Sequence record: PQ141284.1
Length of the DNA stretch: 45,491 nucleotides
DNA from: Escherichia phage fEg-Eco06
Reading direction: 5' to 3' (one strand)
Shown: in pieces, positions 3,273 through 44,471 of the stretch
Layout: each line of letters starts with the position of its first letter
Position numbering within the stretch: position 1 is the stretch's first letter
The notes under the pieces: model-generated
Database searches by the model: none
What the model was told of the DNA's origin: nothing
What the model saw: the letters and a program-made list of their open reading frames with translations, nothing else
Position numbers and translations under genes: made by a program

Positions 3273-3301
3273 TTGACTATTACCCTCGACCCTATTATAT
3301 T
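3273..3301 (+). promoter_or_regulatory. sigma70-like promoter
   Basis: TTGACT (3273-3278), 17-bp spacer ending CCCTAT, TATATT (3296-3301); 34 nt upstream of the 3335 gene. Confidence 0.55.
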
Positions 3302-3334
3302 TACTCCATCGACAACGAGAACGGAGTAGAGAAG

Positions 3335-3532
3335 ATGAGTAACGTACCGACAATCGCAATAACCGAGGAACTTGAAGCCAAATGTATCGCATCAGTTATA
3401 GGGAATGGTTCGGTGGAAAAACTACAGATGAGGGCCGCTGCGGGCTACATACGCAGGGCTAATAGTGCGATGAATGATTCCTTACGTAAACGTTACCTCA
3501 TGAAAGCGTTAGAAATTCTGGAGAATAAGTAA
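3335..3532 (+). CDS. hypothetical protein
   Basis: 65 aa ORF after promoter; GGAGTAGAGAAG RBS region. Confidence 0.5.
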   Translation: MSNVPTIAITEELEAKCIASVIGNGSVEKLQMRAAAGYIRRANSAMNDSLRKRYLMKALEILENK

Positions 3533-3681
3533 TGAAAATCACAGATATTGAGGCATTCAAAGACGCACAACTGATGGCACGTATCGCCGTTAGTAACCTT
3601 AGCAACAGCATCCCGGCAGACGCGTTCTGGTTCGCTGCGATGCAGACACTTAAAGCAGCATATGCAGGAGAGAAGAAATGA
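3532..3681 (+). CDS. hypothetical small protein (49 aa)
   Basis: ATG overlapping upstream TAA; GGAG 8 nt upstream; fills gap between tracked ORFs; below track cutoff. Confidence 0.4.
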   Translation: MKITDIEAFKDAQLMARIAVSNLSNSIPADAFWFAAMQTLKAAYAGEKK

Positions 3682-3875
3682 AAGTCAAAGCAGCTAAAAT
3701 TCTCTGGTTACCCGCCCTTGACTATGTGACAGAGGGTAAAGTGTATGACGTATACAACCCGAAAACTACTGGTTTTGGTTATATAGTTGCCGATGACGGC
3801 TGTGATATTTACATAGACTTTGGTAGCGATGAAGGTGATGGTTTCCACGGCGTTAAATGGGAGATTGTCGAATGA
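3678..3875 (+). CDS. hypothetical protein
   Basis: 65 aa ORF, ATGA-coupled to upstream. Confidence 0.5.
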   Translation: MKVKAAKILWLPALDYVTEGKVYDVYNPKTTGFGYIVADDGCDIYIDFGSDEGDGFHGVKWEIVE

Positions 3876-4030
3876 GCGAACAAACACCAATCAGCCAACC
3901 GTTACGAGTAGGCCGTAAAGTCAGTCACATCCCGTTCCCGACACGTGAAGAACTGATGAAACGTAACAGTTTCCCGGGGCCGGACAAGAACAAGTATCTC
4001 AATCGCATGTGGGGAGAGCGTAAAGAATGA
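3872..4030 (+). CDS. hypothetical small protein (52 aa)
   Basis: ATGA overlap at both ends with flanking genes; below track cutoff; antisense track ORF 3925-4218 judged spurious. Confidence 0.4.
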   Translation: MSEQTPISQPLRVGRKVSHIPFPTREELMKRNSFPGPDKNKYLNRMWGERKE

Positions 4031-4212
4031 CTGACCGCGAATATGAAAAGATGATGGTTGAGGCCGTTAACAGCGGCGTAGACATCGGACACGTGATGCG
4101 CGTCCTGAATACTAAAATCGCGGTAGCCGAGCAAATGGTCGAGTCGCTTTACGAGACGCGCCGTGAACTGATTAACCGCTTCAACCTGAACAAAGGTGAC
4201 ACCAATGCCTAA
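4027..4212 (+). CDS. hypothetical protein
   Basis: 61 aa ORF, coupled start. Confidence 0.5.
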   Translation: MTDREYEKMMVEAVNSGVDIGHVMRVLNTKIAVAEQMVESLYETRRELINRFNLNKGDTNA

Positions 4213-4492
4213 AATCACAATCGCATCTCTCGAGCGCCGTATTCTGGTGCTTGAGTCGGAGAAACAGACGTTAGGCGGGCAACTGTCGATTAACGGTGAG
4301 TTTCAGCTGGAGGCGTTCCGTATACTCCTCGGCGTTATGAAGCAGGAACCCAGCGCATACGCAGGAGTGTTCCTTGACGAGGAAGGTTCGCAGACACTAA
4401 GTTACTACGCTACCGAAGAAGAATTAGCGTTCGACGGCCCCGCGGTATCTATCCCGCTGTTCGATAACTGGATGGTGTACGACTATGACTAA
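4196..4492 (+). CDS. hypothetical protein
   Basis: 98 aa ORF overlapping neighbours. Confidence 0.5.
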   Translation: MTPMPKITIASLERRILVLESEKQTLGGQLSINGEFQLEAFRILLGVMKQEPSAYAGVFLDEEGSQTLSYYATEEELAFDGPAVSIPLFDNWMVYDYD

Positions 4493-4670
4493 AGCGCCTG
4501 AACCAGTAGTTATCGATGGCGTCCTGTGGAAGCCATACTCGGTTTACCACATCGACGCCGACGGGAAGAAGTTTAGCTTCTACATTTTTGCAATTAGCCG
4601 TGAGCACGCCGCTTGTGTGGTTGACGATATTCGAGAAACGGCGTGGCTTGGTGATGAGATAGCGGGGTGA
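4485..4670 (+). CDS. hypothetical protein
   Basis: 61 aa ORF. Confidence 0.5.
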   Translation: MTKAPEPVVIDGVLWKPYSVYHIDADGKKFSFYIFAISREHAACVVDDIRETAWLGDEIAG

Positions 4671-4757
4671 GAGTATGAGTCTCGAGGTGGTTATCGGTCT
4701 GGTGGGTCTTAGTTACTTCATTGGGCTGTTGGTTGGGTTTCTGTGGGGTAAATACTA

Positions 4758-4928
4758 ATGTTCAGTGACATTAACGCGGCAATCGAAGAAGCAATCTGGC
4801 GTCGCTACAACGGCGAGCAACAACGGCATTTCTGCCTGGTGCAACGCGGTAACATGATTGCCGTAGTGCAGGACCGCGATAACAAATATCCGAATGCGAT
4901 GTGGACAACGAGGAATTTTTTAGGATGA
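4758..4928 (+). CDS. hypothetical small protein (56 aa)
   Basis: ATG at 4758; stop overlaps ATG at 4925 in ATGA arrangement; below track cutoff. Confidence 0.35.
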   Translation: MFSDINAAIEEAIWRRYNGEQQRHFCLVQRGNMIAVVQDRDNKYPNAMWTTRNFLG

Positions 4929-5161
4929 TTACCAGCATTCCGAACCTGATTAAAGAATTCGGCACGATGGCCGAGACGTGCCGGCAAACCGGCATCAACG
5001 AAATGACGATTGCGAAGTACAGCAAAGACGTTGATTGCGAGCGCCACGTAATTTATAACAATCGTCTGATGACACATGTTAAGACAAGCCCGGTGTTATT
5101 CACGCGCCGAGGTATCACTAAAACTGAGCAACGCATTGCTAAAGGGGAGAGTGGGGAATGA
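4925..5161 (+). CDS. hypothetical protein, possible HTH
   Basis: track ORF 4901-5161 trimmed to ATG 4925 coupled to upstream stop; helix-turn-helix-like segment ETCRQTGINEMTIAKYS. Confidence 0.45.
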   Translation: MITSIPNLIKEFGTMAETCRQTGINEMTIAKYSKDVDCERHVIYNNRLMTHVKTSPVLFTRRGITKTEQRIAKGESGE

Positions 5162-5349
5162 TTGAGATTTTGAGGGCTACGAATGTTGCTGGTGACCTGG
5201 TGTTTTGGCTGGCCTTTCTCGGTGTGCTGATAAAACAACCGACTCTGTTTAACAGTCTCCCTCGTTACCTGTGGTGGCCTATGTTTTTAGGCATGGGTGT
5301 ATCAGGCGTGGCAGGCATCCTTTTGTGGTTTTTCAAATGGGACTACTAA
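5158..5349 (+). CDS. small membrane protein
   Basis: 63 aa, two hydrophobic helices, ATGA-coupled. Confidence 0.5.
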   Translation: MIEILRATNVAGDLVFWLAFLGVLIKQPTLFNSLPRYLWWPMFLGMGVSGVAGILLWFFKWDY

Positions 5350-5442
5350 TCATCCCTAACGCCTGGGCCATTCCCGTAGCCAACGACCATTACGGCGGCG
5401 ACGGTAAAAGAGCGCAACGACACGGCCTATACAACTGATACA

Positions 5443-5467
5443 AGCCCTCTACGGAGGGCTTTTCTGT
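5443..5467 (+). terminator. intrinsic terminator
   Basis: AGCCCTC / GAGGGCT stem with TACG loop followed by TTTCTGT. Confidence 0.55.
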
Positions 5468-5559
5468 ACATCCCGCCCAATCCCCTTATATAATCTATTT
5501 AGACGCGTAGGGCGCGTCTGGTGCGCTCTGATGGTCAGACGCATATGCAAGGGGATTCT

Positions 5560-6069
5560 ATGAAGCTGAAACTTAAGCAGCCATCACCAGAGGTGGTGCA
5601 AGCTGCACATGAAGAAGCTGTTAGCGCAAACCGTCGCCGTAAACGACCGCGCGGTAAACAGAGCCTTTATCAATCATCCCGTAATTCCGCTGCGCTGTGG
5701 GACCCGGACTATTGCGACGAATTGATTCGTTTCTTTGACCGCACGTCGTGGGAGCTTGTGCCAACGTCTAAGGGTGATGAACGCCCACTGATTCAGGATA
5801 AGCCGCCGTCACTGGCCCGCTTCGCCTTACACATCGGCGTAACTATCCCGATAATTAAGCTGTGGCTGCGCGAGATTCCCGCATTTGCAGAAGCCTGGGA
5901 GACAGCACAGGCGCTGGAAGAGGCATACTTCACTGAAACGGGGGCCGCGGGCATCTCTGCTACGTTTGCTGCCGCGAAACTGGGCCTGAATAAAACAGTT
6001 GTCGCCGAAGAAGTACGCGACGAGCCAATCAGCGAAGTAACAATTAAGGTGGTGCCCGGTGAACGTTAA
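5560..6069 (+). CDS. terS: terminase small subunit (putative)
   Basis: directly upstream of and overlapping the large terminase; HTH-like PSLARFALHIGVTIPIIKLW segment; ATG 5560 chosen inside track ORF 5521-6069. Confidence 0.55.
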   Translation: MKLKLKQPSPEVVQAAHEEAVSANRRRKRPRGKQSLYQSSRNSAALWDPDYCDELIRFFDRTSWELVPTSKGDERPLIQDKPPSLARFALHIGVTIPIIKLWLREIPAFAEAWETAQALEEAYFTETGAAGISATFAAAKLGLNKTVVAEEVRDEPISEVTIKVVPGER

Positions 6070-7330
6070 TATCACGGCAACGGAGCCGCAAGGCGCGTTT
6101 CTCGGTATGCATTGCAAGTTTCCGGCATTCGTAGCTGGCTTCGGTACGGGTAAATCCGAAGTTATGTGCAACTCTGCACTACTCGACAGCATGGAAGGTG
6201 GTAGCGATTCTATCATCGCCATGTATGAGCCGACCTATGACCTGGTGCGCCTCATCCTTGCACCGCGTATGGAAGAAAAGCTCACCGACTGGGGTATCCG
6301 GTACAAATACAACAAGTCTGACAACATAATCTATACGTCTTCCGGACAATTTGGGGATTTTGTTCTGCGTACACTTGATAATCCAGCAAGAATCGTTGGC
6401 TACGAATCGTTTCGTGCGAAAATCGACGAGTTGGACACCCTTAACATGGAGCACGCCGAGCACGCGTGGAACAAAGTCATCGCCCGTAACCGCCAGTTGC
6501 CGCGGACATATAAACCTATTACACCGAAACCTGCTAATACCGTTTCCGTGTTCACTACCCCGGAAGGATTCCGTTTCGTACATGACCGCTGGGTAGTCAA
6601 AAAGAATCCAGGCTACGAGATGATTCAGGCGTCCACCCTGTCTAACCCGTTCCTGCCAGAAGATTATGTGCAGTCGTTACGCGACACATACCCAGGTCAG
6701 TTGATTGACGCCTACATCGACGGCAAGTTCGTAAACCTCACGTCCGGAACGGTATACTATGCTTACGACCGCAGGAAAAACAGCAGTCGCGAAACAATCA
6801 ATCCCGGCGAGACTCTGTATATTGGGCAGGACTTTAACGTAGGTCACATGGCGAGCACGGTTTACGTGCAACGCGGTAAGGTCTGGCACGCTGTTGCCGA
6901 GTTGGTTGATATGTTCGATACGCCTGACGTAGTGCGGGCCATAACTGAGCGATGGAAAAGTAAGGGCCACTATATCGTTATGTACCCGGACGCCAGCGGC
7001 AAAAACCGTAAAAGCAACAACGCCAGTACCTCAGACATCGCTCAGTTACAGCAGGCCGGTTTCGAAGTACGCGCCAAATCAACAAACCCGCCGGTTAAAG
7101 ACCGCGTATCAGCAATGAACAAGGCGCTTGAATCTGGTATGGTCATGATTAATGAGCAGGCATGCCCGGTTACGGCGCGATGCCTTGAGCAACAGGCTTA
7201 CGACAAGAACGGCGAACCGGATAAATCGGGTGGTGTGGACCACCAGAACGACGGGACCACATATCCTATCGCGTATGAAATGCCGATTCGCAAACCAGTT
7301 ATTAATGTCCCGGTGACTTTCGCACTTTAA
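6059..7330 (+). CDS. terL: terminase large subunit
   Basis: 423 aa; Walker A-like AGFGTGKS near N-terminus; position upstream of portal; start ambiguous (GTG 6059 or ATG 6107). Confidence 0.75.
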   Translation: MNVNITATEPQGAFLGMHCKFPAFVAGFGTGKSEVMCNSALLDSMEGGSDSIIAMYEPTYDLVRLILAPRMEEKLTDWGIRYKYNKSDNIIYTSSGQFGDFVLRTLDNPARIVGYESFRAKIDELDTLNMEHAEHAWNKVIARNRQLPRTYKPITPKPANTVSVFTTPEGFRFVHDRWVVKKNPGYEMIQASTLSNPFLPEDYVQSLRDTYPGQLIDAYIDGKFVNLTSGTVYYAYDRRKNSSRETINPGETLYIGQDFNVGHMASTVYVQRGKVWHAVAELVDMFDTPDVVRAITERWKSKGHYIVMYPDASGKNRKSNNASTSDIAQLQQAGFEVRAKSTNPPVKDRVSAMNKALESGMVMINEQACPVTARCLEQQAYDKNGEPDKSGGVDHQNDGTTYPIAYEMPIRKPVINVPVTFAL

Positions 7331-7342
7331 GAGGATTATTCA

Positions 7343-8824
7343 ATGTTAACTATGAACGGTCATAATCAGGGTGTTAAGACAAAACACCGGGAATGGCTGC
7401 AGCACTTCAATAAATGGCAGAAGGTTCGCCATGCGCTGGAAGGCGACCTTATTCGCTATCTGCGCAACGTTGGGAAGAATGAGCCGGACCCGACCTACGC
7501 GGCACAGCGCCAGGAAGAATACGAGAACGGCGCTATCTGTTACAACTTCACCAAGAGAACGCTGGCGGGGATGGTCGGCAGTGTCATGCGCAAAGACCCT
7601 GAGCAAATTATCCCGCATGAACTGGAATACCTGTTGCACAACGCTGACGGTTCAGGCGTCTGGCTGTGGCAGCACGCGCAGGATACGTTAATGGAGATTA
7701 ACTCGATAGGACGTGGTGGGTTGCTGGTTGACGCCCCGGAGACTGCTGCCGCAACGGCAGCTGAACAGAACGCAGGGTTATTAAACCCGGTCATCGCATT
7801 CTACACCGCAGAGAACATCATCAACTGGCGACTGACCCGCGTCGGTTCTGTTAACCGTGTGACAATGGTCGTGTTGCGTGAAGTGTGGGAATACTCAGAA
7901 CCTGGAGCAGAGTTCGAAACTAAGTTCGGTGAACAGTACCGCGTCCTTGACCTGATTGATGGTCGCTACCGCCAGCGCATTTACCGTTTCGACGCCGAGG
8001 GCGGCGCTCAGGGCGAAGTAATCGAAATCTTCCCGGAACTCGGCGAACAGTTACGCGGCAAAATCCCGTTCACGTTCATTGGTGCAAGCAACAACGATGC
8101 AACCATTGACGATGCACCTTTGCTGCCGTTGGCTGAGCTTAATATTGGGCATTTCCGCAACAGTGCAGACAATGAGGAGTCCAGCTTCGTCGTAGGCCAG
8201 CCTACTCTGTTCATCGCCCCCGGTGAGAACATGAGCATGGAACAATGGAAAGAAGCCAACCCGCACGGAGTGCGTATGGGGTCACGTTCTGGCCATAACA
8301 TCGGTTACGGCGGCAATGCGTTTCTGGTCCAGGCCGGTGAGAACAACCTAGCCAAGCAGAACATGCTGGATAAAGAGAATCAGGCCATCCAGATTGGTGC
8401 GCAGCTTATCACCCCTACCCAGCAAATCACCGCTGAATCAGCCCGCCTGCAACGTGGTGCCGACACGTCCGTTATGGCGACAATTGCACGTAACGTAAGC
8501 ATGGCGTATACCGATGCGCTAAAGTGGGTTGCGGGTATGCTTGGGCTTAGTGACGGCACTGAAATTGAGTTCAAACTGAACATGGAGTTCTTCCTGCAAC
8601 CAATGACCGCCCAGGACCGCGCTCAGTGGATGGCGGATATTAACGCGGGCCTGTTACCGGCTACCGCTTACTATGCCGCGTTGCGTAAGGCGGGGGTAAC
8701 TGACTGGACAGACGAGGACATTCAGAACGCTATCGAGGATGCGCCGCTGCCGTTAGGTGCTGTTACTCAGGTGGCGGGGGAGATTCCGCAGTCGGCGCAG
8801 CAACAGGACACCACTCAGCCGTAA
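7343..8824 (+). CDS. portal protein (putative)
   Basis: 493 aa ORF between terminase and head morphogenesis gene; AAGAGGA RBS. Confidence 0.6.
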   Translation: MLTMNGHNQGVKTKHREWLQHFNKWQKVRHALEGDLIRYLRNVGKNEPDPTYAAQRQEEYENGAICYNFTKRTLAGMVGSVMRKDPEQIIPHELEYLLHNADGSGVWLWQHAQDTLMEINSIGRGGLLVDAPETAAATAAEQNAGLLNPVIAFYTAENIINWRLTRVGSVNRVTMVVLREVWEYSEPGAEFETKFGEQYRVLDLIDGRYRQRIYRFDAEGGAQGEVIEIFPELGEQLRGKIPFTFIGASNNDATIDDAPLLPLAELNIGHFRNSADNEESSFVVGQPTLFIAPGENMSMEQWKEANPHGVRMGSRSGHNIGYGGNAFLVQAGENNLAKQNMLDKENQAIQIGAQLITPTQQITAESARLQRGADTSVMATIARNVSMAYTDALKWVAGMLGLSDGTEIEFKLNMEFFLQPMTAQDRAQWMADINAGLLPATAYYAALRKAGVTDWTDEDIQNAIEDAPLPLGAVTQVAGEIPQSAQQQDTTQP

Positions 8825-8860
8825 GTTCACATATAGCCCCGAAAGGGGCTTTCTTATAGT

Positions 8861-17458: not shown

Positions 17459-17460
17459 AT

Positions 17461-18627: not shown

Positions 18628-18632
18628 AACTA

Positions 18633-18656
18633 AGGCCCCTTTCGGGGCCTTTTTCT
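18633..18656. terminator. bidirectional intrinsic terminator
   Basis: AGGCCCC / GGGGCCT stem with TTTC loop and T5 run; between convergent + tail gene and - kinase gene. Confidence 0.7.
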
Positions 18657-20825: not shown

Positions 20826-20863
20826 GCTTACTTCCTCGTGTTTAGGATTTGTCTTATAGTAGC

Positions 20864-21082: not shown

Positions 21083-21098
21083 CGTTGGTGTAAGTGAA

Positions 21099-21127
21099 TA
21101 GTACGCTATTATATTGGGGTGTGCAAG
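21099..21127 (-). promoter_or_regulatory. sigma70-like promoter (TTGCAC-N17-TACTAT family)
   Basis: minus strand TTGCAC (21127-21122), 17-bp spacer, TACTAT (21104-21099). Confidence 0.55.
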
Positions 21128-21233
21128 TAGTGTGCTAGAATAATTTTGCGCCTAGTGTCGCACACGAAAAGCGGGTGGTTCCCGTCTGGCGCATTTCCTT
21201 TAACCAGTAACCTCTTAACCAAAGGATTAAAGA

Positions 21234-21650: not shown

Positions 21651-21655
21651 ACGCG

Positions 21656-25744: not shown

Positions 25745-25747
25745 TTT

Positions 25748-29183: not shown

Positions 29184-29195
29184 AGAGGACTCTAT

Positions 29196-31181: not shown

Positions 31182-31186
31182 AACTA

Positions 31187-31211
31187 AGGCCCCAAACGGG
31201 GCCTTTTCTCT
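31187..31211. terminator. bidirectional intrinsic terminator
   Basis: AGGCCCC / GGGGCCT stem with AAAC loop then TTTCTCT; between convergent operons. Confidence 0.65.
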
Positions 31212-31347
31212 ACTCTTCTGATAACTTCTCCAGTACAAACGCCAGTTGCGCATTAGCGGCGTCTCTTTGCTGGCGTAATCGTAGAACCTCTTCTTCAAGT
31301 TCCTTGATACGTTTTTGCAACGCCGGAATCGGGGCTGTGATGTTCAT
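31210..31347 (-). CDS. hypothetical small coiled-coil protein (45 aa)
   Basis: ATG overlaps stop of TOPRIM gene (ATGA); below track cutoff. Confidence 0.3.
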   Translation of the reverse strand: MNITAPIPALQKRIKELEEEVLRLRQQRDAANAQLAFVLEKLSEE

Positions 31348-34202: not shown

Positions 34203-34390
34203 TTTGCCACCAGAACTAACTCTTTACGCCCGAACGCCGTAACGTTACCGGTTACATCTTCGATAACCAGTTTACCGTTCGACTCGACGTACACCGTATC
34301 AACGGCAACAGGCCGACGGGTCTTAACGTTGAAAATCATGTCGCCAGGTACGATGTCGCGTGCTGGTTTGCGGTCATATTCGTGTTTCAT
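34199..34390 (-). CDS. hypothetical protein
   Basis: 63 aa, first gene after promoter at 34424-34452. Confidence 0.5.
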   Translation of the reverse strand: MKHEYDRKPARDIVPGDMIFNVKTRRPVAVDTVYVESNGKLVIEDVTGNVTAFGRKELVLVAK

Positions 34391-34420
34391 TTCTCAATTC
34401 CTTATATTGTTGGTGTAGGA

Positions 34421-34708
34421 CTAACTATAATAGTTCGCTATTAGGGCGTCAACCTGTTTAAACGAACCAACGACAAAAACATTAGCACCACGCTTACGCA
34501 TCCGCTCGTGCTCCCGTAACTGGTGTGGATCCGGCTTCGTGCTTTCGTCTTTCTTTATCTCGACGAACCAGATGACGCCGCCGGGGAGAATTACCAGCAG
34601 GTCAGGGGCGCCGGAACGTCCTTCGTAGGAAAGTTTACGAACGAGGCCACCAATGGCCTCGAATCGGTCTTTTGCGTATTTCTGTATTTTGCCCTCAGGC
34701 GTACTCAT
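34421..34708 (-). CDS. VRR-NUC domain nuclease
   Basis: ATG 34708 within track ORF 34421-34744; PDLLVILPGG...FVEIKKDE...QLREHERM segment. Confidence 0.6.
   Translation of the reverse strand: MSTPEGKIQKYAKDRFEAIGGLVRKLSYEGRSGAPDLLVILPGGVIWFVEIKKDESTKPDPHQLREHERMRKRGANVFVVGSFKQVDALIANYYS
34424..34452 (-). promoter_or_regulatory. sigma70-like promoter (TTGACN-N17-TATAGT family)
   Basis: minus strand TTGACG (34452-34447), 17-bp spacer, TATAGT (34429-34424); overlaps 3' end of VRR-NUC gene. Confidence 0.5.
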
Positions 34709-34793
34709 CCACACACCCCTCACGTTTCGTATGCGCAATACCACAGCGCGGACAGATCCGGCGGTCTTCTTCGTAGAACCAGTAAATTTTCAT
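34695..34793 (-). CDS. hypothetical zinc-ribbon-like peptide (32 aa)
   Basis: ATGA-coupled; CPRCG motif; below track cutoff. Confidence 0.25.
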   Translation of the reverse strand: MKIYWFYEEDRRICPRCGIAHTKREGCVDEYA

Positions 34794-34921
34794 TCCAGCA
34801 CCCACAGATAAATTGTTACTAACATACCTAATACGGCAACCATCATGCCGTATTGACCCTCGTGACAGTAGACACCGGCGGCGAATCCCGCCAGTACCGC
34901 AATAATCAGTTTACTTGGCAT
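34790..34921 (-). CDS. hypothetical membrane peptide (43 aa)
   Basis: ATG overlapping the 3' end of the polymerase gene; single hydrophobic helix; below track cutoff. Confidence 0.25.
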   Translation of the reverse strand: MPSKLIIAVLAGFAAGVYCHEGQYGMMVAVLGMLVTIYLWVLE

Positions 34922-37094: not shown

Positions 37095-37113
37095 TATTTT
37101 CGACCCTTAGTAA

Positions 37114-37133
37114 AAGGCCCAATGAAGGGCCTT
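37114..37133 (-). terminator. hairpin (attenuator-like) between SSB-like gene and polymerase
   Basis: AAGGCCC / GGGCCTT stem with 6-nt loop; weak U tract. Confidence 0.4.
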
Positions 37134-37152
37134 AGTTAAACAGATTCAGATA

Positions 37153-37782
37153 TTAACCACGGCGACGACGTTCGCGGCGCGGTGCTTCATCTTCTTCGTC
37201 GTCTTCCAGGTCATTGACGCTCGCAGCGACTTTAGAACCGCCGAACGCTTTGCCTTCGCCAACGTATTTAATCGCCAGCAGGTTAACGCCGAGGACTTTG
37301 TATTTCTGGCTGAACCAGATTTCAGCGCTTACGTTAGCTAAGCATCCGCTGTAAACCTGTTCACCTTCAATCTGTTCGCCGTCTACATTGAAGTCCTGCT
37401 CTACCTGAGTCTCGCCTTTTTTAGAGGTTACAATCAGCGGTTGTTTCTGTGCCTTCGCTTTGAAGTAGAAGCCTTCCGGGAAGTCTTCAAACGGATTGTC
37501 GCGCTCAGCAATGTCTTTAATCGCGCATTTATCCATGTGCTTACCTTCGCCGTAGTTGGACTTCATCCACTTCTCGGCAGTGGCAGCACCTAATGCTTCT
37601 TCAACTACAGCATAAACAGTGTCGTAGAGTGCGTCGATTTGAGCATGGTCAGACGGCAGGATGATTGTCGCGCTGTACTGGCCTTTAGTGATTGAGCCAT
37701 CGTCGTTTTCACGGTCTTTTTCGCGTTCGAATACGTTAACCCATGCAGTGTTTACTTTACGCAGATTCAGTTTAATACCCAT
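37153..37782 (-). CDS. single-stranded DNA-binding protein-like, acidic C-terminal tail
   Basis: 209 aa; C-terminal NDLEDDEEDE acidic tail; position in recombination module; own promoter. Confidence 0.5.
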   Translation of the reverse strand: MGIKLNLRKVNTAWVNVFEREKDRENDDGSITKGQYSATIILPSDHAQIDALYDTVYAVVEEALGAATAEKWMKSNYGEGKHMDKCAIKDIAERDNPFEDFPEGFYFKAKAQKQPLIVTSKKGETQVEQDFNVDGEQIEGEQVYSGCLANVSAEIWFSQKYKVLGVNLLAIKYVGEGKAFGGSKVAASVNDLEDDEEDEAPRRERRRRG

Positions 37783-37841
37783 CGTGATTTCTCGCTTTTA
37801 AGTTTCAGTTTACTCCGGGATCTGCCCGGCCAGTGATTAGA

Positions 37842-37870
37842 ACTATAATAGCTAACTATTCATGTGTCAA
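37842..37870 (-). promoter_or_regulatory. sigma70-like promoter (TTGACA-N17-TATAGT)
   Basis: minus strand TTGACA (37870-37865), 17-bp spacer containing GAATAGT, TATAGT (37847-37842). Confidence 0.6.
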
Positions 37871-38059
37871 ATAAAATTTTGCAATAGGGATTATGTTCTC
37901 GAAATTAAGCATATTGGCCGGTTCGAACTCATCCTCTACAGGGTAGTATCGCATCATGGTACCGTTCAAGAACGTGAACGATTCCGAGTGTAGATACCCA
38001 TCCCAGTGCCATACCATCAAAAAATCTTTATCAGTCGGCATTTCATTTACTTGAATCAT
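37856..38059 (-). CDS. hypothetical protein
   Basis: ATG 38059 ATGA-coupled to exonuclease stop, GAGGAGGA RBS; track ORF 37856-38089 trimmed. Confidence 0.45.
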   Translation of the reverse strand: MIQVNEMPTDKDFLMVWHWDGYLHSESFTFLNGTMMRYYPVEDEFEPANMLNFENIIPIAKFYLTHE

Positions 38060-39345
38060 TCTAAATCCTCCTCTGTAACTTGATTCCACTCAGGACGTTT
38101 GTCATCCGCCGTTGCGACGCATGGCGCACCGGGCTTACGGGTAATGAAGTCTTTCAGTTCTTCTTCCGGTACAATTTTAACCGCTTCGGTCGGTGTCATA
38201 AGAACTACCTTTTGCAGCATAGTACCGTACTTCTCGAATACTGCATCGGTATCTTTCCACGCACGATTACCCGGGCGTCCTTCAACCAGTTTATACCCCG
38301 GCACTTTCTTACCGGAATGTAACGCAGCAGCCATAGCTTTCTCAACCTTGTCGATGTGCTGGCGCAACAACGGCAACTTCTCATACTCAGCTACGAGTTG
38401 CTCTGGCGTAAGCTCAAGTGCAAAGTCGTCCTCCAGTTCTTCCGCCAGCCCCGCGTTAACGGTTTTTGTACGCGCTGCGCATTGTTCAGAGAACCGACAC
38501 CACTGACAACCATCTACCGACGGCTTGAAGTCCGACGCTTTCAGGTTCTTTTTACCCCGGAAATAGGCATCAAGAGCCAACAGCGCCCGTTTCTGTGCAA
38601 ACTTAGCGAACAGTTCCAGACCTTCAACCGAGATGTCCCACTCCGATGCACCGCCAGCGTACGGCTGGAAGATGACCAGTCGAACGGTTGTTATGCTATA
38701 ACGTCTCTTGAGTCGGCGATAAACGCCGAGAGCATAAAGCATAAGCTGCTTGTTTTCTTTCGCTTCGACACGATGCCGCCCGGTTTTCAGGTCGCAGATG
38801 ATAAGCATGTGTTCGTCGGTGTTAGCCAGTTCCTGTATGGCAACAAGGTCAGCAGTTCCGAACGTCTCCACAGTTTTAAAAACCCCGGCGTTGCCATCCC
38901 CCGGCTCCCCAGCAACACGAAACATATAGCCAGGATGCAATACCTCAGTAAGATTGACCCGCATTTCCAGCTTAGCGTAAGCCGCTACGTCGATAATCGC
39001 TTTGCAGTAGTCGGTGTACTTGCGCACCTGCTCAATCATGTCCGCCGTAATCAGTACAGCACCTTTCATCGGGCGGATTAGTGCCTTAATCTGGCCTTTG
39101 CCCTCATCCAGCACATAAGCGCCAACTTCACGCTCTAACGGCAACGCAGTTCCGCGAATATAGGCGTTGAGATGGACCTCAGCTATAGTGTGGCACGCAG
39201 TCCCTGTAACGGCGGCTTTACCGGACGTGTTAGGGATATCTTTTTCGCAGGCCAGGGATGCGGCACAACTCAGCCACTTTTTAGCGCCCGATGGCGACAG
39301 TAAGGCGTGAACATCATTATTGCCGCCGCGTTCCTTTAAAATCAT
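38056..39345 (-). CDS. Cas4/RecB-like PD-(D/E)XK exonuclease
   Basis: ICDLKTGRH nuclease core; one N-terminal Cys (WLSCAAS) and C-terminal CQWCRFSEQC cluster typical of Cas4-like Fe-S nucleases; ATG 39345 chosen. Confidence 0.65.
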   Translation of the reverse strand: MILKERGGNNDVHALLSPSGAKKWLSCAASLACEKDIPNTSGKAAVTGTACHTIAEVHLNAYIRGTALPLEREVGAYVLDEGKGQIKALIRPMKGAVLITADMIEQVRKYTDYCKAIIDVAAYAKLEMRVNLTEVLHPGYMFRVAGEPGDGNAGVFKTVETFGTADLVAIQELANTDEHMLIICDLKTGRHRVEAKENKQLMLYALGVYRRLKRRYSITTVRLVIFQPYAGGASEWDISVEGLELFAKFAQKRALLALDAYFRGKKNLKASDFKPSVDGCQWCRFSEQCAARTKTVNAGLAEELEDDFALELTPEQLVAEYEKLPLLRQHIDKVEKAMAAALHSGKKVPGYKLVEGRPGNRAWKDTDAVFEKYGTMLQKVVLMTPTEAVKIVPEEELKDFITRKPGAPCVATADDKRPEWNQVTEEDLE

Positions 39346-39614
39346 ACCCTGCTCTCCCACTGGTCAATTAAATGTCGTGTCTTATGGTCGCAGTGCATAG
39401 CCCACCCATACATCGACTCGAAGACATAAAAATCAGGTTTGGCGAATGTCGTGCGCTTAATCTGCGACACGTGACGGCATATATCTTTAGGTCGTGGTAC
39501 TTTGCCTAAGTACGCCATCTCTTCCATCAGGTGCGAACCGGACGGCGCACGCAACAGCCATAGCGCCTCTGTGTTATCCCGCCTGTCAACGGCGCGGTAG
39601 AGTTGGTAAATCAT
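39342..39614 (-). CDS. hypothetical protein
   Basis: 90 aa ATGA-coupled. Confidence 0.5.
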   Translation of the reverse strand: MIYQLYRAVDRRDNTEALWLLRAPSGSHLMEEMAYLGKVPRPKDICRHVSQIKRTTFAKPDFYVFESMYGWAMHCDHKTRHLIDQWESRV

Positions 39615-39946
39615 TGCGCCTTCTCCTGCATTTTCAGAAAGACAATCATCGCGGCGCGTAGAGGGTTTTTACCGATTACGCATTCGTCTCCAACGTAAAT
39701 CATACTGGTGGCGTCTCCGGTAATACCGTCAATAACCGCATTATCCGGTAAAGCAATCCATTCTGAATTGGTAGCTACAATCGAGATGTTGTTACCGGTG
39801 ATAACAGGCCATGCGTCTTCCACGCGGTTGCAATAATCAACATCACCAGAAGCTAATTCCATCTGATGCCCTCGCGAAACATTGCCGTATAGTGCGCGAC
39901 TAACCCGTGCGTTAATTTCTATGTCTGTTAGATTTTCATATTTCAT
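39611..39946 (-). CDS. hypothetical protein
   Basis: 111 aa ATGA-coupled. Confidence 0.5.
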   Translation of the reverse strand: MKYENLTDIEINARVSRALYGNVSRGHQMELASGDVDYCNRVEDAWPVITGNNISIVATNSEWIALPDNAVIDGITGDATSMIYVGDECVIGKNPLRAAMIVFLKMQEKAQ

Positions 39947-39989
39947 AATTCCGACCCTCAGTTAAAGCGGCCCGAAGGCCGCGAGATAG

Positions 39990-40493
39990 TTATTCTTCTT
40001 CGAAATACTTGTTCTTGATTGCCGTCAGGCGTTCAAGGTACTCGGGCAGGTCTTCATCTTTAATCGCGGCAATCTTCATTTTCTTACCGGTGAACTCCTC
40101 CAGCAGTTCATCGGAATCGTCGCACGCAGCATCGCTAGGACCTTCGTTAATTGCATCGTCGATAGCCTGAATCTGGTCACGAAGAGACTGGTAATCGACC
40201 TCTTCTTTCTCTTCTTCTGGTTCTGGAGTCGGCTCCTCTACTTTAGCTTTACGCGGCTTGCGTTTCGGCTTCTCTTCTTCTTCTGCTGGTTTAGCGTCAA
40301 CGATGTCTTCACCTTCAACAGGGATTTCTTTTGTTGCTTCTTTTTCGCACTCAGCTACCGCTTCTTTGGTATACACTACCGTCTCTACTTCTAACGGCGC
40401 TGCAACTTGTGCTGACTGTTTCGCACTGTTCGCAGCAATCAGTTCATGTGCAACTACGAAACGTTCCAGTAATTTTAAGAATTGTTCTAACAT
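39990..40493 (-). CDS. hypothetical highly acidic protein
   Basis: 167 aa, E/K/P-rich low-complexity centre. Confidence 0.5.
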   Translation of the reverse strand: MLEQFLKLLERFVVAHELIAANSAKQSAQVAAPLEVETVVYTKEAVAECEKEATKEIPVEGEDIVDAKPAEEEEKPKRKPRKAKVEEPTPEPEEEKEEVDYQSLRDQIQAIDDAINEGPSDAACDDSDELLEEFTGKKMKIAAIKDEDLPEYLERLTAIKNKYFEEE

Positions 40494-40515
40494 TTGTTTC
40501 TCCTGTTTATTTAGG

Positions 40516-40731
40516 TTACTCGCCGTCGCCTTCTGTAAGGCTATCGTCTATTAATTCAAATTTACCGTTTGAGTGTTGTATAGCTTCTTGCCCGCAATGG
40601 GCACAGACAATAAGTTTATCGAACCCATCAAACTCATCCCCCACCACGCAAGAAAGTACAAATTTATGTTTTGTACATACTTCTTGAGGTTCACCGAAAA
40701 TTGCGTGAAAACATCTCGCCACTACATTCAT
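40516..40731 (-). CDS. hypothetical zinc-ribbon protein
   Basis: 71 aa; CxxC...CxxC (CAHCG); first gene after promoter 40764-40792. Confidence 0.5.
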   Translation of the reverse strand: MNVVARCFHAIFGEPQEVCTKHKFVLSCVVGDEFDGFDKLIVCAHCGQEAIQHSNGKFELIDDSLTEGDGE

Positions 40732-40763
40732 CTTCTGTCTCTCCTCTCGTTTGGTATGGGTTA

Positions 40764-40792
40764 ACTATAATAGCGAACTATTCACATGTCAA
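40764..40792 (-). promoter_or_regulatory. sigma70-like promoter (TTGACA-N17-TATAGT)
   Basis: minus strand TTGACA (40792-40787), spacer containing TGTGAATAGT, TATAGT (40769-40764); second ACTATTCACAT box at 40821-40831. Confidence 0.6.
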
Positions 40793-40856
40793 TGGGCTTT
40801 TCTAAAATAATTAATATGGTACTATTCACATATTAACTGACTAAGGAGTAATTGAC

Positions 40857-41072
40857 ATGCAACCATCTGAACTAGGCATCCGTATGGAACAACGCCGTAA
40901 AGAACTCGGCATCTCCCAGCGCCGTCTGGCTGTCCTGACTGGCGTTTCTCAGGGCGCGATTAACCAACTGGCACTTGGAGTAACTCAGGACGTCCGCCCG
41001 GCGACGCTGTTTAAACTGGCGGAAGTGCTTGAAGTAGACGCCAAGTGGTTGGCGTTAGGTGAAGGGGCTTAA
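40857..41072 (+). CDS. XRE-family HTH transcriptional regulator (Cro/CI-like)
   Basis: 71 aa; LGISQRRLAVLTGVSQGAINQLALG helix-turn-helix; AAGGAG RBS; divergent from early operon. Confidence 0.75.
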   Translation: MQPSELGIRMEQRRKELGISQRRLAVLTGVSQGAINQLALGVTQDVRPATLFKLAEVLEVDAKWLALGEGA

Positions 41073-41090
41073 GCCCCTTTTCTTTTTATT
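41063..41090 (+). terminator. intrinsic terminator
   Basis: AAGGGGC / GCCCCTT stem with TTAA loop followed by TTCTTTTTATT. Confidence 0.65.
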
Positions 41091-41283
41091 GCACCTTTAT
41101 CGGGTATCTTTTGCGAAACTTACCTAACCCGCAGTACACGCTGTAAGCCTCTGTGTAACTGAACACAACATGATACCCGCGCCCATAAGGAACTACGTTA
41201 AGAACTTCTACTACTTCGCCTCTGTGGTTGGTGTATTTATTACCTTTCAGTTCGTCGCTTACTTCTTTAAATTTACCGCTCAT
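41086..41283 (-). CDS. hypothetical protein
   Basis: 65 aa ATGA-coupled to primase/helicase stop with embedded GAGGAGGA RBS. Confidence 0.45.
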   Translation of the reverse strand: MSGKFKEVSDELKGNKYTNHRGEVVEVLNVVPYGRGYHVVFSYTEAYSVYCGLGKFRKRYPIKVQ

Positions 41284-43547
41284 TCCAAATCCTCCTCTGT
41301 CACTGTCAACATTTCATTCGGTTCGTATATTGTCTTTGGAATCTTGTTATCAGTTATTCTGGTGTTCAGCCTGTAACGACCTGGGATTATCTGATTGTTT
41401 TCGTCAGTACCCGGAACAAGATACCCGGCCTCAACCATTTTCTTAATCTTCCCGCGTTCTATGGCTTCTTTGGAGTTAAACGCCTTTGCGTTGGGGTCTG
41501 ACTGTGCGAGCTTATTCGCCGCGGCGACTGTGATGCCTTCGTTGCCGTTGTAGGTTCCTTCCGCCAGTTCAAACGCCGCGAGTATCGTGGCCTCCGAACT
41601 GTTGACGGCGTTCTCTACGGTTTTACGTACATTTTCTTTACCTTCTTTCGTCAACCCTTCTTCCCGCTCTTTCTCCTCGTCAGTTTTGAACGGCTCGAAA
41701 CCCCACGGCATCAACACAAGCGCCTTGTGTGGTTCAGGCAGGTCCAGGTTTACGATTGTGCCGTATTCCTCTGTGCTACCCAGGAACTCAACCGCTCGGT
41801 ATTCTTTAGGCGGCGGCGCTTCACGGAACTGTACCGACTCCAGCACCATGCCAACCGTCTTCTGCTGAGGCCCGTGCTTGAATTTCGAGTGATATACGTT
41901 TATCTGACGGTCGGTTGCACGTTCGATTGTCAGTTCCACGTCAACACCCGCATACAGCGCCCCACTGCCGCGTGCTTTCTTTCCACCCTTCGGCGTATGG
42001 TGGACAACGCCTACTGCGGCTTTAGTTGCATCGCGTACTTCTTTCAGAATGGCGATAACTTTACCCATGCCGATTGCTGTTGATGAACTGTTCTCGTCGA
42101 ACTTATCAATCGTCAGTGCCAGGGTCTGGTTAAGGGTGTCGAACGCAACCATGCCAATTGGCTCGTCGCCAGCAGTTTCGCGCATTAACTTAATCAGGCT
42201 TTTAAGTTTGCCGACTTCGCCCATATCGATGACATGTACATAATCTTTACCTTCCTCGCCGTATTTAGCCGCGAGCGCATCAATACGTGTACGTGTGGCT
42301 GCCCCACCCTCGCCGTCGATATAGAAATGGTGACAACGCTGGGTGTCAGCCCCTGCAAACCGGTATCCGGCGGCGCTCAGGTACATCATCCCCAGCGTAT
42401 AGAATGATTTGTACGTGCCCGATTCTCCGACGATACCCCAGATACAATCCGACGGCATGTACCCCTCAACGACGAAATCAGCCTTTACCGGCTCCGGTAA
42501 CTCGTCCTCCTCTGAGTCCTCGTCGTCTTCCAGGTCGTCGAGGCTGCATGAGACAGATTCACGCGCCCCCCAACCGATGGCCTCTGCGACTTCACTGAAC
42601 GGCAGCCCGGTCGCATCGCACGCGTACTTCCACACCTCTTTCGGTGACAGGCCTTCTGTCGCCGTAATGTCTGTGTCGTGAATCATGGTTACGTTAGGCG
42701 CTTCGTATCCCTCGCGCGGGAAGCACAGCAGGAAGTCGTCCGGACGCGGCGTTGGGTCACTGTAGTTTTCAGCGTGTTCCGGTGTAGCTGGCATCTTAAG
42801 GCCGCGTGGTGTCATAACTCCGCCGTACTCGAACGCCAGCGCTTCGAACGCATCAGTAAACGCGGAGCGCAGTTCTTCCGGTATCTGGTAATCCGATGCG
42901 CTGCTCACCTCGTAATCCGGTATGCCTTCCAGTAACTCGTCCGGGTCAATCAGGTCGTTGCGACGCGACCAGATAACGGTAGAGCCGACCGGCGGCAGGT
43001 ACATCGGCTGGGACAGAGTGAACCCGCTGCGGTCAGCGCCCATGCCTTCGAAGAAGTGCTCCAGCAAGCCATGACGAACACGGATGATGTCGCCGCCTTC
43101 AACCGGGCGGCCCAGCGGCATGACGACGCGAAAGCGCGGTGACTCATCAGTATGTGATGCCGTGGTATACAGGCACATAACCTGACGGCTGCGCTTAACC
43201 AGGCGCACCGCTTCCTGGTACTCTTCCGGTGTTGCACTGTCGAAGTCCAGATACGCCAGCGACGATTTGCTCACAGACGCGTCACAGCGATAGAAGAAGC
43301 CTTTACGCGCTTGTTTAAAGCCACCGGTTTCCGGGTCTTTTACGGTGCTGTGCGCAGAGTCGCACGCGGCAGTAATATAGCCTGGCGCTGTCTTCGGGTT
43401 GATCCCGTCACGAACAGCATCGAGCGGCTGGATTAACTCTTTCAGGTCATCCAGTGTTGCCGTGTGTGTGGTTCTGACGTTTATATCCTTTTTCTCTGCC
43501 CGCGCGTTGCGACGTGACCACGAGTAGGATAAAATTACATCGGACAT
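41280..43547 (-). CDS. DNA primase/helicase (RecA-fold ATPase with N-terminal primase-like domain)
   Basis: 755 aa; Walker A GESGTYKS, Walker B-like MVAFDTL; large N-terminal domain; ends in EEDLE. Confidence 0.6.
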   Translation of the reverse strand: MSDVILSYSWSRRNARAEKKDINVRTTHTATLDDLKELIQPLDAVRDGINPKTAPGYITAACDSAHSTVKDPETGGFKQARKGFFYRCDASVSKSSLAYLDFDSATPEEYQEAVRLVKRSRQVMCLYTTASHTDESPRFRVVMPLGRPVEGGDIIRVRHGLLEHFFEGMGADRSGFTLSQPMYLPPVGSTVIWSRRNDLIDPDELLEGIPDYEVSSASDYQIPEELRSAFTDAFEALAFEYGGVMTPRGLKMPATPEHAENYSDPTPRPDDFLLCFPREGYEAPNVTMIHDTDITATEGLSPKEVWKYACDATGLPFSEVAEAIGWGARESVSCSLDDLEDDEDSEEDELPEPVKADFVVEGYMPSDCIWGIVGESGTYKSFYTLGMMYLSAAGYRFAGADTQRCHHFYIDGEGGAATRTRIDALAAKYGEEGKDYVHVIDMGEVGKLKSLIKLMRETAGDEPIGMVAFDTLNQTLALTIDKFDENSSSTAIGMGKVIAILKEVRDATKAAVGVVHHTPKGGKKARGSGALYAGVDVELTIERATDRQINVYHSKFKHGPQQKTVGMVLESVQFREAPPPKEYRAVEFLGSTEEYGTIVNLDLPEPHKALVLMPWGFEPFKTDEEKEREEGLTKEGKENVRKTVENAVNSSEATILAAFELAEGTYNGNEGITVAAANKLAQSDPNAKAFNSKEAIERGKIKKMVEAGYLVPGTDENNQIIPGRYRLNTRITDNKIPKTIYEPNEMLTVTEEDLE

Positions 43548-43605
43548 GTTGTATTTCCTTCAGCAAGTAATTTGGCCTCGGCGTTCACCGCGTCGGGGCT
43601 TTCTT

Positions 43606-43839
43606 TTATTCCAGGTCTTCTAAAGTAGCTGTCATTCCGCGAACTTCAGCATCAGCGCTATATTTCCCACCAACGTTTTTCACGACACCGGATTTAACCA
43701 GCACCTTCAACGACCCTTCAATAATGGCTGAACTATAGTACTTAAAATAACTACGGCGCAAGTCGATAACACTGCATGACCCTTTTTTACGTGTTAACGA
43801 AACGACCGCCGTAAATACGCGTGACTGGAACTCTGTCAT
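43606..43839 (-). CDS. hypothetical protein
   Basis: 77 aa; ends in LEDLE. Confidence 0.45.
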   Translation of the reverse strand: MTEFQSRVFTAVVSLTRKKGSCSVIDLRRSYFKYYSSAIIEGSLKVLVKSGVVKNVGGKYSADAEVRGMTATLEDLE

Positions 43840-44006
43840 TTCACATTCTCCTTAATCCACGCTTCCACTTTCTCTGGGTCAAACGTACCGGGCTGACGAC
43901 GGCCCATAATGCGAATACAGCAATCAGGGAACTTCCCACTCTTTAGCCAGTTATTCAGCGTTCGACGAGTAACCCCAATACGCTCAGCTACTTCATTCTG
44001 TGTCAT
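43836..44006 (-). CDS. HTH DNA-binding protein (AlpA/excisionase-like)
   Basis: ATG 44006 with GAGGG RBS (track ORF starts at TTG 44039); NEVAERIGVTRRTLNNWLKSGKFP helix-turn-helix. Confidence 0.55.
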   Translation of the reverse strand: MTQNEVAERIGVTRRTLNNWLKSGKFPDCCIRIMGRRQPGTFDPEKVEAWIKENVK

Positions 44007-44442
44007 TCTCAAACCCTCATTATCAGTTAACGAAACCAAGTATACATTGCGAATAATGGGAAATCAAACATAATCGCACCTATTGACATTATGAAAATCT
44101 TCGTTTAAGGTGCTTCTATATCTTAGTTACTTTGATTCCTGTTCACCTTGTAATACCCGCTTGAAACGCAGCGGCGCCAAAGCGCCAGCGAAGTGTTAAG
44201 CGGCAGATTACTGAACATAAGAATTACCGTAACTTTCCTTCCGTAGTATCTCTGGTTGCCCTGGGCAAGTTCTATTCTCATCGGCAGCATATCTCTTAAG
44301 TATATGATAATTAAAAGTTTCTATAGTTGCCGTGAGCAATGTTGAGAGTACTTCACTCCGCTGGGGTGGGCTAACGCCCACCCACTGCGTTGCGTACTCT
44401 TTTAAGAAACGAAAGAATCACAGCGGCAACGTAACTATTCTC

Positions 44443-44471
44443 TTGCACACCCCAACATAATAGGGTACTAT
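44443..44471 (+). promoter_or_regulatory. sigma70-like promoter (TTGCAC-N17-TACTAT family)
   Basis: TTGCAC (44443-44448), 17-bp spacer, TACTAT (44466-44471); 25 nt upstream of gene at 44497. Confidence 0.55.

Follow-up and report, generated by a model that had tools for sequence, protein, structure and literature searches.

Which protein reads the short element ACTATTC, or its complement GAATAGT, that recurs in and beside the promoters of Escherichia phage fEg-Eco06? The window analysed here is the whole 45,491-base-pair (bp) stretch of sequence record PQ141284.1, and it represents the full, circularly permuted genome of a Kagunavirus (Guernseyvirinae), a virulent siphophage of E. coli. A sequence-only reading of it had described two promoter architectures sharing this heptamer, proposed a phage-specific regulator site laid over host sigma70 promoters and pointed to XRE or AlpA-like regulators as possible readers. 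We find that the heptamer is made up of one arm and the adjoining flank of a 14-bp palindrome, AATAG-N4-CTATT, which takes its place as the regulator unit, and that both 'architectures' consist of the same ~20-bp unit, TATAATAGnnnnCTATTCA, in opposite orientations and in two registers. We lean towards the view that the palindrome is the operator for a dimer of a 71-amino-acid (aa) protein resembling 434 Cro, which would repress the sigma70-type promoters on which it lies.

A palindrome laid over sigma70-type promoters

Perfect copies of AATAG-N4-CTATT begin at eight positions of the window (82, 11552, 21097, 34429, 37847, 40769, 44459 and 45415), where 0.03 would be expected; with at most one mismatch allowed, the count is 13 against 0.95. 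The arms themselves are common (AATAG occurs 27 times, CTATT 38 times), and across spacings of 0-11 they pair in inverted fashion at a spacing of 4 only, bar one N6 copy at 12-27. When all 5+5 inverted repeats with gaps of 0-10 are counted without bias, this dyad ranks first both in the window and in the related phage Golestan, with eight copies each. It also ranks first in Jerseyvirus jersey, where its four copies extend to TAATAG-N4-CTATTA; the usual extended form in Kagunavirus is TATAATAG-N4-CTATTCA. The palindrome is strongly over-represented, and each of its eight perfect copies is either non-coding or, at the extreme end of a gene, overlaps a promoter. Seven of the eight lie inside promoters of the two families, A and B, that had been described before. 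Promoters throughout are sigma70-type consensus hexamer pairs read from the sequence. They are listed here with the palindromes on or near them and, as targets, the genes that each would drive.

12-27: variant palindrome AATAG-N6-CTATT with arms CAATAG/CTATTG, 54 bp upstream of the promoter at 66
66-94, plus strand: Family A promoter; perfect palindrome AATAGGCTACTATT (82-95) over its −10; targets, the small genes from 126 through holin and endolysin
3268-3281: one-mismatch palindrome ACTAGTTGACTATT over the −35 of the promoter at 3273, a third register
3273-3301, plus strand: Family B-like promoter TTGACT-N17-TATATT, with no palindrome in its spacer
11553-11581, minus strand: Family A promoter; perfect palindrome at 11552-11565; target, the 67-aa gene at 11322-11525
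11635-11648: tail-to-tail half-sites ACTATTCGAATAGT over the −35 of the candidate promoter at 11648
11643-11656: one-mismatch palindrome AATAGTTGACTTTT over the same −35
11648-11676, plus strand: candidate promoter TTGACT-N17-TAAGCT, heading the Rz/scaffold/capsid module
21098-21126, minus strand: Family A promoter; perfect palindrome at 21097-21110; targets, superinfection-immunity, exonuclease and kinase genes (21082 to 18656)
34424-34452, minus strand: Family B promoter TTGACG-N17-TATAGT; perfect palindrome at 34429-34442 in the spacer; target, the methyltransferase/helicase operon
37842-37870, minus strand: Family B promoter TTGACA-N17-TATAGT; perfect palindrome at 37847-37860; targets, the DUF2815 gene and then, beyond the terminator at 37115, the DNA polymerase gene
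40764-40792, minus strand: Family B promoter TTGACA-N17-TATAGT; perfect palindrome at 40769-40782; divergent to the Cro-like gene
40813-40826, plus strand: one-mismatch palindrome AATATGGTACTATT on the Cro-like gene's extended −10, TGGTACTAT (40817-40825)
44443-44471, plus strand: Family A promoter; perfect palindrome at 44459-44472; extra half-site ACTATTC at 44434-44440, upstream of the −35
45415-45428: orphan perfect palindrome AATAGGTTACTATT that lacks a usable −35; it follows the last gene of the 44443 operon and precedes the terminator at 45442-45463

Family A, TTGCAC-N17-TACTAT, has four exact matches in the window (0.01 expected). Two of the three positions reported before, 11553-11581 on the minus strand and 44443-44471 on the plus strand, are right; the third was placed one base off (21099-21127 for 21098-21126, minus strand), and 66-94 on the plus strand had been overlooked. 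The spacers do end in ATAATAGGG or ATAATAGCG, as described. Family A reaches 7/12 against the sigma70 consensus (TTGCAC 3/6, TACTAT 4/6), which is under the threshold of our consensus scan, and it keeps the key bases TTG and TA...T. Family B, searched as TTGAC-N18-TATADT, has four matches (0.06 expected) at exactly the coordinates given previously (3273, 34424, 37842 and 40764), and its three minus-strand members are the top sigma70 consensus matches on that strand, at 10-11/12.

The heptamer occurs 11 times in the window (4.56 expected). It is present in six of the eight promoters, being missing at 3273 and 34424; further copies lie at the −10 of the Cro-like gene (40821), in the tail-to-tail pair at 11635-11648 and, singly, at 44434. 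Because only six promoters contain it, the claim that it marks at least eight regions stands when these extra regions are counted and falls for the eight promoters alone.

Throughout Kagunavirus and Jerseyvirus, the palindrome begins either 4-5 or 10-11 nucleotides (nt) past the TTGnnn −35 hexamer. In the Family B register it starts 4 (sometimes 5) nt after the −35 and spans approximately −25 to −12 with a 17-nt spacer, and its last T opens the −10 hexamer TATAGT. In the Family A register it starts 10 nt (in Jerseyvirus sometimes 11) after the −35 and spans approximately −19 to −6, so that its centre and right arm form the −10 hexamer TACTAT. The identity of the two units is direct: the plus strand at 40766-40785, across a Family B promoter of the minus strand, matches the promoter strand of Family A at 11553 or 21098 over the length of TATAATAGnnnnCTATTCA. 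Three one-mismatch copies (3268, 11643 and 40813) also overlap sigma70-type hexamer pairs. At two of them, 3268-3281 and 11643-11656, the −35 hexamer TTGACT is the centre plus right arm of the palindrome. A further one-mismatch palindrome, TATAGTATGCTATT at 8855-8868, lies directly past the portal-gene terminator and over the start codon at 8861, where the next gene begins; it may be a chance match or a further weak site.

The motif itself is already known. In fBC-Eco01, PHIRE returned tgAATAGTa-ccTATTat-T (n = 7), the same sequence motif as the window palindrome, and the seven copies were labelled as promoters of a phage-encoded RNA polymerase (PMC9825357). The Golestan paper likewise reports seven PHIRE 'promoters', the motif sequence being absent from its main text (PMC7203180), whereas our scan finds eight palindromes in that genome. 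Both papers treat the motif as a promoter, and the palindrome, its registers and a binding protein are not described there. The phage-polymerase label does not hold, for want of such a polymerase: close relatives have no annotated RNA polymerase gene, and each long open reading frame of the window aligns with a gene for terminase, portal, tape measure, tail, tailspike, DNA polymerase, helicase or helicase-primase. The motif also lies within recognisable sigma70 −35/−10 pairs with 17-bp spacing. We give this explanation practically no chance of being right. Searches of the literature for Jerseyvirinae/Guernseyvirinae promoters, for Cro function in these phages and for Cro-like shut-off in virulent phages returned nothing relevant, and no published regulatory map for Kagunavirus or Jerseyvirus was found in the literature searched. 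The palindromy, the registers, the clade distribution and the link to a Cro-like gene are undescribed in the searchable literature.

Conservation and covariation of the half-sites

Over long stretches, the window shares 95-98% identity with Escherichia phages SCS92, BEU35 and Golestan and with the BASEL isolates Bas70-76, and its gene order equals that of Golestan along its whole length. The plus strand carries, in order, small genes, lysis genes, a second small-gene block, terminase, head genes and tail genes; the minus strand carries three blocks with replication genes and accessory genes such as superinfection immunity. Across the window end, the last palindrome (45415) and the first (82) are 158 bp apart, and the orthologous Golestan sites (38971 and 39129) are equally spaced.

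For comparison we used 37 Kagunavirus and 11 Jerseyvirus IMG/VR contigs, retrieved via the Cro-like protein. AATAG-N4-CTATT is the top dyad in essentially all of them. Its centre is free: counted over distinct sites in ~50 genomes, Family B contains 22 different centre tetramers, and in Family A the first two bases of the centre vary. The promoter of the DUF2815 gene was aligned by anchoring on the orthologous gene and not on the motif; here conservation of the arms is about equal to that of the −35, whereas the four bases preceding the palindrome and the N4 differ between the genera. The copy at 3268 reads ACTAG-TTGA-CTATT in Kagunavirus and AATAG-TTGA-CTAGT in Jerseyvirus, that is, the same single deviation on opposite arms. 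The orphan palindrome at 45415 is kept in Kagunavirus genomes. The base following CTATT is A in 38/38 Jerseyvirus half-sites, whereas Kagunavirus usually has C on one arm.

More distant clades carry symmetric changes of the half-site. Those that we label L069 and L074 have TTAG-N4-CTAA in four copies each, and L060 has ATAC-N4-GTAT in three copies. The sites of all three clades lie in sigma70-like promoters, one or two of them immediately upstream of a Cro homologue, and these homologues have diverged. L053-type phages and Serratia phage Smarc3 retain ATAG-type sites, some with one mismatch. No perfect 5+5 dyad recurs in the STM-ZS-like, L053-type and L061-type clades, whose orthologous promoters hold one- or two-mismatch or non-palindromic versions, and the covariation argument is therefore limited to three half-site types.

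Judged by these comparisons, the palindrome is under selection; it is a real and conserved element, and very probably a functional one. The earlier proposal of a phage-specific regulator site over host sigma70 promoters is supported on comparative grounds, all computational tests agreeing with it: the shape of the dyad, its over-representation, its confinement to promoters, the conservation of its arms, the symmetric changes between clades and the copies on either side of the XRE (Cro-like) gene.

The regulator could nevertheless be a host protein. SlyA of the MarR family, for example, has the consensus TTAGCAAGCTAA, a 12-bp palindrome of similar build. The L069/L074 variant, written as TTAGC-N2-GCTAA, equals the outer ten bases of this published consensus, the inner 12 bp of the two window sites that we compared match it at 7-8 of 12 positions by our own count, and the core is common to phages of E. 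coli and Salmonella. However, the outermost bases of the motif are A...T where SlyA has T...A, and this difference holds in every one of ~200 perfect sites collected. The arm sequence also shifts between phage clades in step with phage lineage, the sites cluster near the phage's own regulator gene, and a host repressor site on each early promoter would be a liability to the phage. We consider binding by a host protein distinctly improbable. The L069 sites of this form lie at 6831, 9896, 14523 and 16413, and L074 has them too; their likeness to the SlyA consensus may reflect coincidence or the use of a host factor.

A second alternative dispenses with a regulator altogether: the sites could descend by duplication from a single ancestral promoter cassette, or the palindrome could be inherent to the promoters, as symmetric −10-like sequences would be. 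The promoters do share more than the palindrome, namely the cassette AAACGAGAGGAGAGAC(T/A)GAAGATG at 105-128 and 40729-40752, and every site lends bases to a −10 hexamer (TACTAT or TATAGT). Yet perfect arms persist while centre, flanks and −35 distance change, the same unit occurs in both orientations relative to transcription, and the orphan copy is present without a promoter. The paired arm changes in other clades would not arise by duplication or polymerase contacts alone. Divergent transcription from a symmetric −10 was ruled out by reading the sequences directly, the other strand having no acceptable −35. An explanation without a regulator is improbable in our estimate.

A Cro-like protein as candidate binder

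If the palindrome is an operator for a phage protein, the window offers two small helix-turn-helix proteins as readers:

40857-41072, plus strand: Cro-like helix-turn-helix gene, 71 aa, Pfam HTH_3; monocistronic, ending at the terminator at 41061-41080
43836-44006, minus strand: AlpA-like gene, 56 aa, Pfam HTH_17

The Cro-like protein matches Pfam HTH_3 with an E-value of 2.4e-12 (47.1 bits, cut-off 23), and 434 Cro, a protein of equal length, is its top match in the set of solved structures (E 5.7e-6, residues 6-68). Its AlphaFold model has five helices and a predicted local distance difference test score (pLDDT) of 85.7, and it superimposes on 434 Cro (2cro/3cro) with template-modelling (TM) scores of 0.72-0.77 at 37-40% identity. 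Other structural matches are P22 C2, SinR, HipB and the restriction-modification controller proteins C.BclI, C.AhdI and C.Esp1396I. Proteins of these types are dimers that bind palindromes, and dimeric helix-turn-helix proteins usually have a dyad as their site; the 434 operator, too, has a length of 14 bp and a free centre. The cro gene is flanked by the perfect palindrome on the divergent promoter (40769-40782) and by the one-mismatch copy on its own −10 (40813-40826), presumably an autoregulatory site. This arrangement, with the regulator gene next to putative operators and one of them on its own promoter, recurs in clades L060, L069, L074, L076 and L084. Cro proteins of Kagunavirus and Jerseyvirus are 46-48% identical, and the genus-specific base after CTATT follows Cro, whereas the AlpA-like proteins of the window and of Jerseyvirus have the same recognition helix (TRRTLNNW).

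The AlpA-like protein could bind the palindrome as a repressor, or use it as an antiterminator loading site in the manner of Pseudomonas aeruginosa AlpA. That AlpA occupies an element located between −35 and −10, and polymerase then passes downstream terminators (PMC7969949). The Family B palindrome sits in the same spacer, the position expected of an AlpA/Q-type element, and intrinsic terminators are numerous in the genome, one of them inside the 37842 operon. However, that is the only one of the seven operator-bearing operons with an internal terminator, and the AlpA operon's own promoter lacks a good site. P. aeruginosa AlpA acts as a single molecule on the asymmetric 6-bp element GGGACG, contacts DNA through residues 128-142 and has an N-terminal ring-forming segment (PMC9371919). 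The AlpA-like protein here consists of a helix-turn-helix only and, at 56 aa, is too short for such a segment, and the element is a symmetric dyad. Clades L060, L069 and L074 share the promoter-palindrome design, yet an AlpA-like gene was undetected within 10 kb of cro there, profile search included. Furthermore, Kagunavirus contigs L008 and L029, with the variant AlpA recognition helix STMTLNRW, retain the same motif. No clear TAnnnT pause element was seen by eye within ~20 nt downstream of the promoters. AlpA-type antitermination was rejected: the element is similarly positioned, but protein size, stoichiometry and symmetry do not fit, and the design persists where the gene is undetected. 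The AlpA-like protein is, overall, an unlikely reader.

Downstream of the divergent 21098 promoter, the leader of the first tail gene (21234) contains a match to the Rfam int-alpA RNA (RF02996; 21145-21209, plus strand) that ends in a U-rich tract and scores 36.6 bits against a gathering score of 35.8. Nothing besides it emerged from an Rfam search of the promoter regions and long leaders. The RNA is also found in Golestan, and no match reaches the gathering score in STM-ZS or in Jerseyvirus, which has the AlpA-like gene. A functional link between RNA and gene is possible, but co-occurrence gives it no support, Jerseyvirus having the gene without the RNA match.

Between the two readers named earlier, the XRE/Cro-like protein is therefore favoured over the AlpA-like one, on four grounds: the same design in clades where no AlpA-like gene was detected within 10 kb of cro, AlpA-helix variants that keep the motif, a flanking base that tracks Cro, and the size and asymmetric element of AlpA. 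We infer both the identity of the binding protein and that its binding represses, and the transcription start sites are inferred as well. In the proposed mechanism, the Cro-like gene would be read from its own promoter soon after infection, and Cro dimers would then fill the perfect operators and block RNA polymerase at the spacer or the −10. In the spacer register (Family B), the operators would cover the three leftward replication operons; in the −10 register (Family A), they would cover the small-gene, lysis and superinfection-immunity operons, and the cro promoter would likewise be covered at its −10. Altogether, the targets of perfect sites would be the three replication operons, the superinfection-immunity operon, the gene at 11322-11525 and two rightward small-gene operons, one of them with the lysis genes. 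At a higher Cro level, the imperfect sites would be filled as well, on the cro promoter and on the 3273 and 11648 promoters leading into the structural modules. Both promoters heading structural-gene modules have their one-mismatch copy in the −35 register. Perfect and imperfect sites would thus confer graded sensitivity. Cro would turn down, or cap, most phage promoters plus its own synthesis, akin to Cro at the early promoters of lambda and 434, here with no CI partner and with operators scattered genome-wide in a strictly virulent phage. The net effect may be early shut-off, an expression ceiling or delay.

Published expression data touch on this scheme. RNA sequencing of Kagunavirus K1B4 places a helix-turn-helix gene among the four earliest-peaking genes, and the superinfection-immunity, methylase and DNA polymerase genes are reported to peak last (PMC12645636). 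Gene order suggests that the early helix-turn-helix gene is cro. The study distinguishes three coarse classes over 120 minutes and names a handful of genes, and its timing is too coarse to arbitrate between early shut-off and delay.

Several observations weigh against repression by the Cro-like protein. The last-peaking genes stand behind perfect operators, so that delay by a repressor fits equally well as early shut-off, and a virulent phage has no obvious gain from repression of its replication and lysis operons. The 10-bp core is common to Kagunavirus and Jerseyvirus, but of the seven positions in the Cro recognition helix four differ between them (SQGAINQ versus SQSLITH). The STM-ZS-like and L061-type clades carry Cro homologues, yet show no clear repeated palindrome. 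The loci in which the AlpA-like gene was detected, ~87% identical between the genera, belong to Kagunavirus and Jerseyvirus alone, the very two groups that have the multi-copy motif. Finally, the perfect site at 45415 lies outside any promoter.

A more ambitious version of the Cro reading can be offered tentatively, and we hold it to be rather less probable than not. Here, essentially the whole transcription programme of a virulent siphophage would be run by one 71-aa Cro-like protein without CI, acting through eleven operators in three registers and two affinity grades on nearly every sigma70 promoter. Rising Cro would set the order and level of all gene classes, and the design would extend, with retuned half-sites (ATAG, TTAG and ATAC), across a wide Guernseyvirinae-like clade. 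If this is true, the retuned half-sites are a natural set of orthogonal repressor-operator pairs, and the clade-specific variants could yield compact pairs for use elsewhere. Kagunavirus and Jerseyvirus phages are common candidates for therapy and biocontrol, and the BASEL collection paper describes Kagunavirus as a small, understudied group that is appealing for synthetic biology (PMC11990801). A promoter-operator map with a named candidate repressor makes the temporal programme directly testable, and the list of putative operators gives engineers sites to avoid or exploit when rewriting these genomes. The logic is that of familiar Cro control; specialists may find it tidy and not surprising, and its general interest is modest, with practical value in phage engineering.

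Terminators, leaders and comparison with known systems

The sequence-only reading had also noted three terminators with an identical AGGCCCC/GGGGCCT stem, and these are confirmed, together with a fourth, related one:

11297-11315: terminator AGGCCCC/GGGGCCT at a convergent gene junction
18633-18650: bidirectional terminator AGGCCCC-TTTC-GGGGCCT
31187-31204: bidirectional terminator AGGCCCC-AAAC-GGGGCCT, with the flank AAAACTAAGG in common with the terminator at 18633
37115-37134, minus strand: related terminator AGGCCC-TTCATT-GGGCCT within the 37842 operon, separating the DUF2815 gene from the DNA polymerase gene

All four have the upstream arm AAACTAAGGCCC in common, and three of them stand where plus- and minus-strand modules converge. 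Those at 18633 and 31187 are near copies, flanks included. The shared stem and arm suggest duplication or a preferred terminator design.

Several leaders are of interest in their own right. The cassette AAACGAGAGGAGAGAC(T/A)GAAGATG, a leader with a ribosome-binding site that is nearly identical on the plus strand at 105-128 and on the minus strand at 40729-40752, precedes two unrelated first genes, and related AACGAG leaders lie downstream of most other promoters with putative operators. The leader of the DUF2815 gene starts with a hairpin, CACTGGCCGGGCAG..CCCGGAGT (37812-37835, minus strand), that is kept from Kagunavirus to distant clades. Paired changes there, to CCGGCTCGG..CCGAG and CCGGCCCGG..CCGGG, suggest a functional 5' RNA structure. 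The candidate promoter at 11648 is followed by ~200 nt of non-coding leader and a strong terminator (11857-11876) ahead of the Rz, scaffold and capsid genes. This layout (11648-11900) resembles a lambda-type late promoter whose leader is terminated. Compared with shuffled sequence, the leader here has a modestly better fold (z = −2.0), and it has no meaningful match in Rfam. On the plus strand at 3095-3258, a terminator, a good promoter TTGACA-N17-GATACT (3150-3178) and a second terminator (3231-3258) follow one another, possibly producing a free-standing small RNA of ~70 nt just upstream of the 3273 promoter. Finally, the ~435 bp at 44007-44442, between the AlpA-like operon and the 44443 promoter, hold no convincing gene. 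They include a GC-rich hairpin (44364-44383) and have no match in Rfam; Jerseyvirus has a ~970-bp gap at the equivalent position. The region may be a replication origin or encode a non-coding RNA.

Among known systems, 434 provides the closest parallel to the proposed Cro-operator pair. The 434 operators are 14 bp long and follow ACAA-N6-TTGT. 434 Cro, at 71 aa, belongs to the same Pfam family as the window protein and is its top solved-structure match. In each system the dyad spans 14 bp, with outer bases that are conserved around a centre that is free, and in both the operators, or putative operators, overlap early promoters including the regulator's own. The window differs in its half-site, AATAG, and in having eleven genome-wide sites in place of the two tripartite operator regions of 434. 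The sites here occupy three promoter positions, and binding is predicted from sequence. No CI repressor, integrase, lysogeny module or second XRE gene is found in annotations of close relatives, and the Golestan (PMC7203180) and fBC-Eco01 (PMC9825357) papers report no lysogeny genes. Because CI and integrase are missing, this is not a lambdoid CI/Cro immunity switch.

AlpA and the lambdoid Q antiterminators share with the window an element in the promoter spacer, a small AlpA-like gene and common terminators. They differ in that the element here is symmetric and the protein far too short, and the design persists in clades where the AlpA-like gene is undetected. The C proteins of restriction-modification systems, which act at C-boxes, resemble the Cro-like protein: they are small XRE-type dimers on palindromes over promoters that time expression after cell entry. 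The promoters that C proteins control, one or two in number, belong to their own operon, and at low concentration these proteins can activate, whereas the reading proposed here is repression.

The genome-wide scatter of the palindrome has its counterpart in P1 C1, the 'stoperators' of mycobacteriophage L5 gp71 and the conserved inverted repeats of phiC31, all of which place many copies of one short site at promoters and in intergenic positions throughout a genome. Those phages are temperate, the protein maintains lysogeny, and the P1 and L5 sites are asymmetric. The window resembles them in having scattered sites, including a non-promoter one, for what would be one small protein, and it differs in that the phage is virulent and the site a symmetric dyad.

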